Assembly: GCA_050740655.1 (NCBI GenBank)
Contig: JBOIDW010000127.1
Coordinates: forward strand, 1-44,382
DNA from: Gammaproteobacteria bacterium
GTDB lineage: Bacteria > Pseudomonadota > Gammaproteobacteria > JACCXJ01
Reading direction: 5' to 3'
DNA: 44,382 bases
Shown here: piece by piece, positions 38,393-44,382 of the stretch
Position numbering within the stretch: position 1 is the first letter of the stretch
Layout: the number at the start of each line of letters is the position of its first letter
Notes under the pieces: generated by a model
What the model was told of the DNA's origin: nothing
The model's input: only the letters and a program-made list of their open reading frames with translations
Database searches by the model: none
Translations under genes and position numbers: made by a program

Positions 38393-38671
38393 ATGTCACG
38401 ACGATCAGGATGGTCCGTCCTCGTCATTCCGTTTTTACTATCTTCCCCCCTTATCGTGGCCGAGCAGGTGACACCGGATCGCGATGCCAAGGCCACCGGT
38501 CAGCGGCCTGAGAAGATCGAGATGCCCGCTGCCGTACCGGCCTATCGCCCGGAGGGCCCCGAAGTGCCCCCTGCGGGTGAGGCGCCCGGGACCAATCAAC
38601 GCGCAAGTAGCGCGCTGCGCGAGCCCGGCCGGTATGTGCCGGGGCCGTTGCCGCGGAAACATCGCCGATAA
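38393..38671 (+). CDS. Small secreted proline-rich protein (hypothetical)
   Basis: A perfect AAGGAG (38378-38383) lies 9 nt before ATG 38393. The signal peptide is [25 protein letters not shown], followed by a Pro/Glu/Ala/Arg-rich, probably disordered 67-aa tail. It sits 61 nt upstream of, and co-directional with, the giant YD-repeat gene. Confidence 0.6.
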
Positions 38672-38732
38672 GCCGCTGCGGGCTCAGCGCCCCGGCCTAC
38701 ACCCTTCGAATCGAGCCCAAGGAGTGGGTGAT

Positions 38733-41700
38733 ATGATAAATCGTACCTGTGTCTGCAATTTTACGGTGTTTATCCTGGTGTTCTGTTGCGCCGCTCGGGG
38801 CGAGGAGATCCGGGACTTTTACGCCGAGCCGGGCCTCAATCCCTTCAAAGAGACGCTGAACCAAGACCTCAATGAGCATATCGATCCCTTCTCGGGAACG
38901 CTGCAGCACAGCCATACCGACCTCGTTGTCCCAGGCAACGGCGGCCTCGACATCAAGGTAACGCGCGTCTACACCAGTCCGCAGAAACACCTCGGTGTCC
39001 GCACGGTGACCGGCGCGAACTGGACCATGCATTTCGGCCGCTTGGTCGCGCCGACCGCACACAAGGATAAGCTCTGCGCGCAAGACACCTACAATGCGCG
39101 CACGGAAGACAATCCCTCCATCGAGTTCCCCGACGGCGGGCGCGAGCTGCTGGTGCTGGATGCCGTCCACGGACAATACCTCGTCACCAAGAGCGGCTGG
39201 CGGGCGACGTGCAATGCCGCGGGCCAAGGCCTGGTCGCGACCTCGCCTTCAGGCGTGAAGTACACGATGGACGCGCTCAATACGCTGAACAACCACTGGA
39301 GCTGGTATACGACGCGCATCGAAGACCGCCATGGGAATACGATCGATGTCGTTTACAAGACGAACTCATGGAATTTCATCTACGTCGATAAGATAACGGC
39401 GAGCGACGGCCGGCTGGTGCAATTTCGATACGAGGTCGAAGATACCGAAAACGTCCGGCTCAAGGAAATCAGCGCGAACGGACAAACCTGGCACTACCGT
39501 TACGAGCACGTCGATACGCCGGAAGGGCTGAATTATTACCATCTGGCCGAGGTCGTACGACCGGATGGCCTGAGCTGGAAGTACAGCTATTACCCTTACG
39601 ATAGCGCAGCGGATGCCGTCGGCAACTATGCCATGCGCTCGGTGACGTACCCGCATGGCGCGAACATCGTTTACAGCTATCAGGAGGTCGACTTCGATCC
39701 CTCGGACGTCGACAACCAATGGGATGAACCGACCACGGTGATGGCGACCAAGAGGGTGGCCGGCCGATTGCCGGGGACGTACGTCGGCGATCCCGACCCG
39801 TCCTTCCCAGGCGGTGAATGGCGCTTCGAGTACGAGCCCGAATCACCGGAGCTGTTTACCACCAAAGACGGCACCTTGGCCTCTGGTCTCGATAAGACCA
39901 CCGTGTACATGCCCGGCGGCAAGCAGGTTTACCTCCACTATGGGTTCTCCTACACGGGCGGCCCGTCCAGCGGCATCTTGTGGATCACCGGCATGCCGTA
40001 TCAGCAAGAGAACTACGATGGCAATTGCGGCGGCGGAACCAGTGTAGGGGGTGCCTGCCGCCTGATAGAGTCGATCTACAACGACTGGGCCCCACGCTTG
40101 ATATCCCAGGAGGACTACTGGCACGGCCGGGCGGCATCGGAGGACGATACCTACGCGGCGCAGCTTATCGGCCGGGTCCACAACCGCGACGATAACGGTC
40201 ACCGGACGGATTACGAAGACTACGATGACCTGGGCAATGCCCGCAGGGTCGTGGAAAAATCCAATCTCGGGGATGCGGACAAGGTGACGCGGCTCAGTTA
40301 CCGCATCGACAAGGCCAAATGGATCGTGCACCAGGTAGAGGACGAGACCGTCCTCGGGCCGGCCGGGGAAATCGTGAGCCACGTCGACCGGACATTCAAC
40401 AGCGATGGCGATCTGACTAGCGAGAACAAGAACGGCGTCTCCACCGCCTATGCGTATACCCCACAGGGCGATCTGGAAACCGTGACCGATGCACGCTCGA
40501 ATACCACCACCTACGCCAACTACAAACGCGGCATTCCCCAGCTTGAACGGCACCCGGAGTCGGTCACCTTCTCCCGCGTCGTCAACGATACCGGGACTGT
40601 CGCGTCTCAGACCAACGGCCGGGGTTACACCCGCAGCTTCAGCTACGATGACCTAAACCGATTGACGGACATTACCTATCCGCTCAATTCACCGGTCGGC
40701 ATCGTCTGGGGTGCGAGCGGCAAGACACTCACCCGCGGCAACTATCAGGAGCGTATCGATCTCGATGGCTTCGGCCGGCCGATCCGCACGACGCGGCAGG
40801 ATACGGTCTCAGGGGTGCAGATCACCCGCACCACGCGCTACGACGTACACAGCAATATAATCTTCGAGTCTTATCCTAATTCCGAGACCGGCGTGAGTTA
40901 TAGCTACGATACGCTCAAGCGGCTTATCGAACTCCAGCACCCGGACGGGGCTCGCCGCACCTATAGTCATGACAGCCCGCAGGTGACGGAGACCGATGAG
41001 CGCGGTAACAGCACCGTATTCCTCTACCGATCCTACGGGGCGCCGGACAAAGACAAGGTGCTCCGGGTGCTCACCTCGCCGGAGAACCTCTCCACCGTCC
41101 TCGCCTACGATCAGCTCAATCATCTGACCAGCGTCTTTCAGGGCGAGAGAGACCCGACCGATGGATCCTTGTCCGGCCTATACCGCAGATTCGGCTATGA
41201 CGCACGCTTCTACCTCACCTCGGTGCAAGATCCAGAGACCGGCGTCACGGCGTACAGCCGCGACGCGCTGGGCAACCTGATCTCCCGCCAGATCGGCGCG
41301 TCCGGGATCACGAACTACACCTACGATGGCCTGAACCGCCAAGTCTATGCCGATTATCCCGGCGCAACCCCGGATGTCTCCACACGTTACGACGCAGATA
41401 ACCATGTGACGCAGATAACCAATGGCAGCAGCGTCATCGATTATCTCTACGACGAGAATGACAACCTCAGGAGTCAGAACCTGAGCATCGGCGCCGTCCT
41501 CTATCCGCTCGCCTTTACCTACGACCAGCATGATTTTCTGAGCGCGATGAGCTATCCCTCGGGCCGGAGCATCGAGTATCGCCCGGATGCCCTCGGCCGG
41601 CCCACTCGGGTGGCGCCTTATGTGAGCACCGTGAGCTATCACCCCGGCGGGCCACTCGCGCAATTCAGCCACGTCAACGGCCAGGTGACCGACGTCGCCT

Positions 41701-44273: not shown

Positions 44274-44288
44274 TCCAGAGGTCCAACC

Positions 44289-44382
44289 ATGAAACGGCTA
44301 TTGCTATTCCTTCTGACGCTCTGCGCCCTCCACGCCCAGGCCGTGGAGCGCGTCATCCACTACCACAACGACGCCCTCGGCT
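44289..44382 (+). CDS. Secreted protein beginning with an Rhs-core-type motif (3' end outside the window)
   Basis: agagg (44276-44280) lies 8 nt before ATG 44289, and the ATG is 15 nt after the giant gene's stop. The visible product is MKRLLLFLLTLCALHAQA/VERVIHYHNDALG. That is a signal peptide with an AxA site followed immediately by the Y-Y-H-x-D-x-L-G(S) signature that opens the RHS repeat-associated core domain. Only 31 codons are visible. Confidence 0.65.
   Translation, partial: MKRLLLFLLTLCALHAQAVERVIHYHNDALG

Follow-up and report, generated by a model that had tools for sequence, protein, structure and literature searches.

Three genes for predicted exported proteins at the end of a stretch of gammaproteobacterial DNA

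The contig JBOIDW010000127.1 of the assembly GCA_050740655.1, which belongs to a Gammaproteobacteria bacterium (GTDB lineage JACCXJ01), was analysed from position 1 to position 44,382, a stretch called the window below. At its 3' end lie three co-directional genes, named here genes 1, 2 and 3 (Table 1), that encode respectively a small proline-rich protein, a giant protein with Rhs/YD repeats and the beginning of a protein with an RHS-associated core. These genes are probably the 5' part of a Sec-dependent polymorphic-toxin module, in which an Rhs protein is made of two polypeptides, a shell and a cargo subunit. A preliminary description of this DNA, made from its sequence alone, had already proposed a Sec-exported Rhs locus split in this way, and this overall interpretation is partly supported by the present analysis. 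Its observation that the three genes are tightly spaced and that each has its own Shine-Dalgarno sequence and leader was confirmed, the gaps of 61 and 15 nt being exact. Each gene has its own ribosome-binding site and its own Sec-type leader (read from the sequence), and no terminator-like site was found between genes 1, 2 and 3. Furthermore, these genes are real rather than chance open reading frames (ORFs), since gene 2 has more than 120 homologues, gene 1 has eight and gene 3 has full-length homologues, those of genes 1 and 3 being located at matching positions.

Table 1. Positions of the features in the window and of the regions compared in related loci (designated by L numbers)
Feature	Position	Strand	Remarks
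Gene 1	38393..38671	+	92 aa; AAGGAG at 38378-38383; leader aa 1-23, mature start EQ
Gene 2	38733..44273	+	1846 aa; AAGGAG at 38719-38724
Shell Sec-type signal peptide, aa 1-23	38733..38801	+	read from sequence; mature start EEIRD
Rhs/YD-repeat beta-cocoon, aa 24-1207	38802..42353	+	Pfam, AlphaFold2, Foldseek
Six tandem PKD (K319L-like) domains, aa 1208-1768	42354..44036	+	Pfam PF22352; boundaries from motifs
C-terminal domain of about 78 aa, aa 1769-1846, and stop codon	44037..44273	+	outside named domains
Gene 3	44289 to window end	+	31 codons visible; AGAGG at 44277-44281
Gene 3 signal peptide, aa 1-18	44289..44342	+	read from sequence; cleavage between ...HAQA and VE
Start of the RHS-associated core	44343..44382	+	identical to core start in L001
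Cargo N-terminal arrays	L045:13269-16349; L054:15176-19498; L050:2856-7112		compare window 42354-44036
Hydrophobic segment after DPxG (first ~20-60 aa), examples	L006:12419-12600; L001:15500-15729		
Compared module regions	L083:9730-13920; window 35254-44382; L001:7586-15732		

The product of gene 2 matches the Pfam family RHS_repeat (E 3.7e-32) and, weakly, DUF6531, a domain of Rhs N-termini, and TEN_YD-shell is present in a precomputed list. Its residues 24-1205 were modelled by AlphaFold2 with a predicted local distance difference test (pLDDT) of 88.4 and a predicted template modelling score (pTM) of 0.81. The best PDB matches of this model found by Foldseek are cocoons of Rhs proteins from type VI secretion systems (T6SS), i.e., 8qja, 8qjd, 7q97 and 7pq5 (E 1e-43 to 1e-39, with a probability of 1.0 at E about 1e-43); lower matches include TcB-TcC of the Tc toxins, a bacterial teneurin-like protein (TLP; 9ifo, E 9e-33) and teneurins. 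On the basis of these matches and of the model, the giant belongs to the Rhs/YD-repeat superfamily, its repeats being predicted to fold as a cocoon.

In classical Rhs proteins, the core (PF03527 or TIGR03696) directly continues the shell in the same polypeptide. The giant is built differently: Pfam found no match to PF03527 in it, and its cocoon stops exactly where a single-chain Rhs would enter the core, to continue instead into six PKD domains. The latter correspond to six stretches matching PF22352 (E 4.7e-85), with additional matches to PKD_4, Sde0182_C and Big_9, and they are followed by a C-terminal domain that matches no Pfam family at E <= 0.001 and gives noise alone at E <= 1. Judging from its sequence, the gene 2 product is an exported Rhs beta-cocoon that has neither a core nor a toxin.

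Behind its Sec leader, the mature giant begins with EEIRDYYAEPG, and no Pfam match to PAAR or VgrG was found in it. Nearly all shell homologues whose N-terminus was recovered have a hydrophobic Sec-type leader followed by a conserved motif. The N-terminal start motif of the shell, IDPFSG...VPGNGG...R.Y, resembles DUF6531. A signal peptide, here read from the sequence, in a protein devoid of any other secretion-specific domain is the organization of the RHS class that depends on Sec and on type II secretion systems (T2SS). T6SS Rhs proteins are recognized by a PAAR, prePAAR or VgrG-binding domain and by their linkage to vgrG, chaperone or other T6SS genes, of which nothing was found in 12 upstream ORFs or among the conserved neighbours of the 82 related loci presented below. 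These 12 ORFs are a subset of those of the window (10 are among the largest), and their identities fit the absence of T6SS, Tc-A and two-partner secretion genes upstream that had been reported in the preliminary description. In the same way, no SpvB, TcdB_toxin_midN or TcA family was found by Pfam in the giant or among the conserved neighbours; the locus thus differs from the BC components of Tc (ABC) toxins, which combine a TcB with SpvB and a beta-propeller, a TcC providing a large part of the shell, and a TcA. Cysteines are limited to four in the mature giant: one pair, C115 and C160, does not vary in an alignment of 16 sequences (A1), and the other two, C432 and C442, are close to each other, which would fit disulfides in an exported shell protein. 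A lipoprotein signal was also considered for the giant and rejected, the lipobox being absent.

The window includes only the first 94 nt of gene 3. They encode the leader MKRLLLFLLTLCALHAQA, followed by the mature start VERVIHYHNDALG, so that 13 core residues are visible; the mature product begins with VERVIHYHNDALGS, which is the start of the RHS core. The stretch VERVIHYHNDALG is identical to the core start of L001, whose protein matches PF03527 (E 1.4e-09). By homology, gene 3 would continue as a core of about 108 aa ending with DPxG, to which a hydrophobic segment and then a variable toxin would be joined, and an immunity gene would come next.

Pairing of shell and cargo genes in related loci

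A profile scan with the shell among species-representative genomes led to the identification of 135 relatives, 80 of which were retrieved, and the set of related loci comprises 82 members. When gene 1 and the two possible products of gene 2 were looked up by exact sequence, no further copy of the contig was found. The carriers are gamma- and betaproteobacteria, including Chromatiales, Ectothiorhodospiraceae, Steroidobacteraceae, Marinobacter, Cellvibrionales, Halieaceae, Thiodiazotropha and Arenicella as well as Pseudomonas, Comamonadaceae, Rhodocyclaceae and Methylovorus, and the split layout occurs in at least 55 species, at shell identities of 30-67%. The closest relative (P0004/L083; 85% identity) ends at a contig edge and has a different genomic context, and the stretch available for L004 (67% identity) ends at the shell gene. 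L001 (62% identity) has the same three genes, the third one encoding a protein of 206 aa made of a leader, a PF03527 core and a tail.

The pairing was counted in the 61 unfused loci that have at least 250 nt of downstream DNA. A core starts within 800 nt of the shell stop in 55 of them, typically at 75-230 nt. The core lies farther away in five others, in two cases because the cargo has a long N-terminal Ig or Fn3 array, and a single locus is devoid of any downstream core. Unbiased clustering of the ORFs found in flanks of +/-10 kb retrieved only two real shared neighbours, namely the shell, in 66 loci, and the cargo gene, in 57, the smaller clusters mostly consisting of opposite-strand ORFs that overlap one or the other. 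According to the preliminary description, a self-contained Rhs toxin-immunity pair downstream of the giant would have been incompatible with its proposal; the downstream protein instead has only a core of about 108 aa, without a shell.

The cargo genes have a constant make-up, i.e., a leader of 22-50 aa, a core of about 108 aa ending with DPxG and a tail of 140-330 aa. The predicted cleavage site of the leader is no more than a few residues away from the first core strand. In a hydrophobicity test, 68 of 73 cargo genes had a leader-like N-terminus, as against 5 of the 73 downstream small ORFs. The loci carry from one to five cargo copies (five in L064, three each in L026 and L027). Tandem leader-core-toxin and immunity cassettes lie behind a single shell in a betaproteobacterial metagenome-assembled genome (MAG) (L064:13856-20268) and in Marinobacter (L026 and L027:13420-17775); within these arrays the cores share 87-100% identity and the toxins are unrelated. 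Extra cargo genes were also found 7-13 kb upstream of the shell, at L002:4731-5288 (-), L006:1547-2440 (-), L009:7722-8579 and L070:8389-9486. Since such copies occur upstream and sometimes on the opposite strand, cargo genes do not always belong to the shell operon. A search with the leader and core of L001 retrieved only short proteins, many of them truncated or frameshifted and most of metagenomic origin, which were left out of the counts, and tblastn against plasmids found only generic Rhs proteins, with about 25% identity.

This recurrence bears on whether the locus could be a canonical Rhs in decay, i.e., a single chain broken by a PKD insertion or a frameshift, the downstream piece being an orphan fragment. 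Classical rhs genes are commonly followed by orphan core-toxin fragments, and degraded loci do exist in the present family (frameshifts in L002, L025, L065 and L075; remnants in L080). However, a start codon and a ribosome-binding site of its own are present in the downstream gene, together with a signal peptide that is conserved in the family. A split layout conserved over so many species and at such shell divergence would not be expected to persist without selection, which contradicts decay, and we give this explanation hardly any credence.

Two loci, L060 (Cellvibrionaceae MAG) and L072 (Pseudomonas sp. 8Z), have shell and core in a single ORF. The joint, of about 10 residues, falls at the split point of the window and reads ...EYIYLGGKRIAENCSSCASGKA-FYHNDLSGSP in L060 and ...EYIHAGGELIAHDGSDGR-LYYHNDHLGSP in L072; the shell-only proteins stop about 10 aa past EYIYLGGKRIAQ. 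Fusion or fission happened more than once, since L060 is nested among split members in its clade and the sister of L072, at 74% identity, is the split L080. Across 38 loci, the divergence of the shell correlates with that of the adjacent core (r = 0.71, Mantel p = 0.001). In Phytopseudomonas dryadis, L080 carries both a split shell and cargo pair and a downstream remnant (L080:10475-11572), in which a C-terminal fragment of the shell (…KEYIHAGGKLIAHGGSDG) is still fused to the core and which resembles a classical orphan rhs cassette.

Accessory domains are always located at the shell/core junction, where they either extend the shell C-terminally or precede the core at the cargo N-terminus. The C-terminal extensions of the shells range from 5 to about 3000 aa and include PKD, PQQ, HYR and TSP3 domains. 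On the cargo side, L045 has seven Big_3_5 domains, L054 has fn3 and discoidin domains and L050 has six Big_7 domains. The partner shell is bare in L045, where its extension has 5 aa, and in L054, where it has 85 aa, and that of L050 runs off the contig. In the preliminary description, the cocoon was proposed to be displayed on a PKD stalk. Such a stalk was not retained as a defining part of the system: the extensions vary and some loci carry Ig, Fn3 or discoidin arrays at the cargo N-terminus, so that, as judged from these sequences, the PKD array is a variable accessory.

The same data can be set against the possibility that shell and cargo are independent proteins, the giant being a YD-shell adhesin or carbohydrate binder and the downstream proteins stand-alone Sec toxins whose core acts as a self-cleaving pro-domain. 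Such independence would agree with the leader and the ribosome-binding site that each protein has of its own, with the confident folding of the shell without the core in AlphaFold2 and with the PKD, discoidin and Ig arrays, which are typical adhesion modules. Cargo genes lying away from shells, about 9 kb upstream on the other strand in L002 and L006 and upstream in L009 and L070, point in the same direction. It does not account for the adjacency seen in 55 of 61 loci across beta- and gammaproteobacteria, where no other real gene is conserved nearby, nor for shell-core fusions that fall exactly at the junction and mature cargo N-termini that coincide with the first core strand. Furthermore, a cocoon without cargo has no evident purpose. 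In the Rhs and Tc structures reportedly described by Busby in 2013 and Meusch in 2014, the core forms the inward-spiralling end of the cocoon. Taken together with the bacteriocin data discussed in the next section, this makes independent proteins an unlikely explanation.

The tails of the cargo proteins are highly diverse. BLAST clustering sorted the 81 tails into 41 groups, whose distribution departs from the shell phylogeny. Their Pfam matches include PT-HINT, HNH, Ntox10, Ntox24, Colicin_D, Colicin_E5, Ntox8, Tox-URI2, Tox-REase-7, Ntox47, GH-E, a barnase-type ribonuclease, Ntox50, Tox-HDC and TreTu_C; for example, L006, from a USCg Chromatiales MAG (63% shell identity), has an Ntox10 tail. 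Paralogous cargo genes of a same locus have cores that are 86-100% identical and tails that are 12-44% identical, a contrast that, as far as sequence comparison goes, is the constant-head, variable-tail pattern of polymorphic toxins. A small ORF directly follows the cargo gene in 74 of 78 cases, mostly at -3 to +20 nt; many of these ORFs match immunity families, and the Pfam matches among them include Imm8, SUFU, Imm33-like, Imm53, Barstar, Imm40, Colicin_immun, Imm26, Imm32 and SUKH_5. A variable C-terminal toxin followed by an immunity gene is thus found in the homologous loci. In 54 of the 81 tails, a hydrophobic segment rich in Gly and Ala directly follows DPxG (examples in Table 1), which may be a membrane-entry element or a pre-toxin element retained by the shell. 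Adjacency, fusions, constant cores with polymorphic tails and immunity genes all speak strongly for the preliminary proposal of an Rhs exported via Sec in two pieces, a shell and a core-bearing cargo that is exported on its own.

The nature of the tails also bears on the targets of these toxins, which could be eukaryotic hosts, as for Tc toxins or teneurin-like proteins, rather than competing bacteria. Many carriers are symbionts (Thiodiazotropha, Poriferihabitaceae, Verminephrobacter), YD proteins are enriched in host-associated bacteria (PMC4612132), and the Foldseek matches extend to TcB-TcC and teneurins. However, most of the tails are of the nuclease and RNase kinds that characterize interbacterial toxins, and each tail is paired with a leaderless ORF of immunity type. 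Moreover, TcA, SpvB, NHL and FN-plug domains were not found by Pfam in the giant or among the conserved neighbours, and many carriers, e.g., Marinobacter, Acidovorax and Comamonas, are free-living. Host targeting is therefore regarded as quite improbable.

Comparison with known systems and possible loading of the shell

The family shares with the classical single-chain Rhs proteins of T6SSs (RhsA of P. protegens, 7q97; Rhs1 of P. laumondii, 7pq5; Tse15 of A. baumannii, 8uxt) the YD-repeat beta-cocoon, a DUF6531-like N-terminal motif, a core ending with DPxG and polymorphic toxins encoded beside immunity genes. It differs from them by its Sec leaders and by the absence of PAAR, VgrG and prePAAR. 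Furthermore, the core and the toxin are here on a separate exported polypeptide, an accessory array is located at the shell/core junction and up to five alternative cargo genes are found per shell.

The BC subcomplex of Tc toxins (TcdB2-TccC3, 4o9x; YenB/RHS2, 4igl and 5kis) is likewise a cocoon made of two polypeptides, and the release of the toxin by the core protease inside the shell can be likened to what is proposed for the present system. Alternative cargo-bearing subunits also exist for one Tc partner, Yersinia entomophaga packaging three toxins from distinct loci (PMC11067744). However, TcC provides about 680 aa of the shell whereas the present cargo subunit brings only a core of about 108 aa. 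The SpvB domain, the beta-propeller gate and the TcA injector, which Tc toxins need, are absent here. In addition, Tc B and C assemble in the cytoplasm whereas both halves carry Sec leaders in the present family.

Sec-dependent single-chain Rhs/WapA proteins, such as WapA of Bacillus subtilis, have a signal peptide before their RHS repeats, are exported independently of any T6SS and form polymorphic toxin-immunity pairs; the fused L060 and L072 are single-chain members of this kind within the present shell family. WapA is one polypeptide anchored to the Gram-positive cell wall, whereas the system of the window is split and found in a Gram-negative lineage. Bacterial TLPs are single chains with an FN-plug and an NHL beta-propeller, neither of which was found by Pfam in the present giant. 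As outlined in PMC13018210, they consist of an exported or surface-located YD shell that holds a toxin, with immunity genes alongside.

The closest tested precedent appears to be the bacteriocin Bcn-A of Xanthomonas perforans. Its locus encodes a 1398-aa RHS protein, two small ORFs (124 and 100 aa), a 290-aa protein (ORF4) and a 145-aa immunity protein (PMC7259588). ORF4 has a signal peptide, similarity to Rhs/WapA/Tc proteins and helices at aa 148-198, and both this protein and the RHS protein are required for activity (PMC7259588). The activity is found in the supernatant, in the high-molecular-weight concentrates, at sizes of at least 50 kDa and mostly above 100 kDa, and is lost in a mutant of the T2SS gene xpsD (PMC7259588). 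That deleting the RHS protein abolishes it (PMC7259588) is difficult to reconcile with stand-alone cargo toxins. The authors considered the RHS protein as the toxin and ORF4 as an accessory, and did not propose a split cocoon (PMC7259588); by analogy, the locus fits the reading of a split Rhs. Compared by description, the Bcn-A layout, i.e., a toxin-less RHS protein, a signal-peptide-bearing Rhs-like protein with helices and an immunity gene, is found across the present family, its first two elements being visible in the window itself. The helices of ORF4 sit at a place equivalent to that of the hydrophobic segment after the core. A difference lies in the two small ORFs that separate the shell and cargo genes of Bcn-A, whereas the cargo gene abuts the shell gene here and the small gene is located upstream. 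A search with the two printed helix peptides of ORF4 (PMC7259588) found no protein.

The preliminary description had presented the system as undescribed, which holds only in part. Sec/T2SS-dependent RHS toxins were catalogued computationally by Zhang et al. in 2012 (PMC3482391), and the Bcn-A locus, which was tested genetically, has the same layout; its authors did not interpret it as a split cocoon (PMC7259588). The literature searched gave no explicit account of an Rhs that is split and has both parts exported via Sec, and this two-protein layout, although widespread, appears to have remained uninterpreted there.

We propose that the shell and cargo proteins would cross the inner membrane unfolded via Sec and that, in the periplasm, the cargo core would dock on the open C-terminal end of the cocoon, i.e., at the position that it has in single-chain Rhs proteins. 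This docking would close the shell and shield the hydrophobic segment and the toxin, and the core, acting as a plug and an aspartyl autoprotease, would cleave at DPxG. The complex would then exit by a general route, most likely type II secretion, given that no dedicated machinery is linked to these genes. The PKD array at the junction could bind the target surface and the toxin, usually a nuclease, would reach the target cytoplasm, and such a site of action would explain why the immunity proteins are leaderless. With the cargo encoded by a gene of its own, whose leader and core are constant, several alternative toxins could be served by one shell. For the more specific proposal that an empty shell is loaded after export, with core docking in the periplasm leading to a secreted capsule, diffusible or surface-binding, with exchangeable cargo, the chances appear evenly balanced.

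Several points weigh against a two-polypeptide Rhs toxin at this locus. The binding of cargo to shell and the enclosure of the toxin by the cocoon in trans are inferred from sequence comparisons, and the correlated divergence of shell and core may reflect only their co-inheritance. No secretion gene is linked to the module among the neighbours conserved within +/-10 kb. The tail and the immunity gene would lie beyond the window and are known from homologous loci alone. Since the closest relatives often have short or decayed cargo genes (206 aa in L001, 185 aa in L002), the cargo copy of the window could also be degenerate. Lastly, the toxins of known Rhs and Tc proteins are enclosed while the same chain, or the large shell part of TcC, folds around them; to our knowledge, there is no structural precedent for a shell that folds separately and into which a core of 108 aa brings a tail of 150-330 aa.

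In the current view, Rhs and Tc cocoons enclose their toxin in the cytoplasm. A shell exported separately from a plug that carries the toxin raises the question of whether the filling and closure of a YD shell can occur in trans, outside the cytoplasm. If so, the present family would provide the first case of an Rhs shell that encapsulates in trans with a core of only about 108 aa as adaptor. This core would then be a portable loading tag, useful for engineered protein-delivery capsules, and trans filling would account for the arrays in which up to five toxin-immunity cassettes depend on one shell gene. Periplasmic loading would also re-explain the Xanthomonas bacteriocin Bcn-A, offering a mechanistic reading of a genetically defined bacteriocin that helped X. 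perforans displace X. euvesicatoria. More broadly, the module would be a T6SS-independent route for Rhs-mediated competition in environmental and symbiotic proteobacteria, such as Marinobacter, Cellvibrionales, Comamonadaceae and the symbionts of lucinids and sponges.

Gene 1 and the genomic setting of the module

Gene 1 encodes a protein that contains 16% proline and ends with a basic tail, RKHRR, and which is probably, from its composition and leader, a small exported disordered protein. No match was found in Pfam or NCBIfam. Its homologues are restricted to L001-L008, which with the window make 9 loci, and all of them immediately precede the shell gene; a profile built from gene 1 and these 8 homologues found no relative outside this closest clade. 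A simple heuristic found, in 39 of 80 loci, that the position of gene 1 is occupied by a small ORF in the same direction, which has a leader and is of low complexity in its body. Homology of these ORFs from other clades to gene 1 is undetectable, but some of them are conserved within the Marinobacter group (L026, L027, L047, L065) and within the pairs L012/L015 and L022/L057. The gene triplet put forward in the preliminary description is thus reduced, outside the closest clade, to mere positional analogues and, as far as sequences indicate, the family is not defined by gene 1.

The module lies behind sppA in the window and behind other genes in its nearest relatives (62-85% identity), L083 having fpg and an ABC transporter there and L001 a RoxA-like cytochrome (Table 1). 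Such differing neighbours suggest that the module moves between genomic sites. The scans for tRNAs and Rfam families found in the window only a tRNA-Met at 15235; therefore, no tRNA-linked island boundary is evident. Gene 1 is preceded by a spacer of 1.07 kb, which the preliminary description had called AT-richer. This is marginally true: its GC content (0.607) is lower than that of the upstream DNA (0.646), but that of the shell gene itself is 0.605. The pseudogene scar also described there was not confirmed and was abandoned, as Pfam analysis of six ORFs of the spacer between 37.1 and 38.5 kb (37106-38496) gave no match at E <= 0.1 and hence no remnant.

The upstream ORFs identified encode RNase E, PNPase, IF-2, NusA, TrmD, a XerD-like recombinase, a Ser/Thr kinase, MauG/SCO1, SBP56, a penicillin amidase, SppA and RluC. 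Within this housekeeping block, a XerD-type tyrosine recombinase gene (26083-27174, +) lies beside that of a eukaryote-like Ser/Thr protein kinase (27185-28360, -). On the minus strand at 29000-32123, the SBP56 gene (selenium-binding or methanethiol-oxidase-like) adjoins an ORF in which SCO1/SenC is fused to a MauG-type di-haem peroxidase, an arrangement that presumably resembles the gene cluster of the copper-dependent methanethiol oxidase. Lastly, the longest ORFs of the RluC-like pseudouridine synthase (35254-36276) and of the SppA-like S49 peptidase (36155-37318) overlap by about 120 nt; the true start of SppA is probably located further downstream, since the Pfam match begins only at residue 207 of the long ORF.

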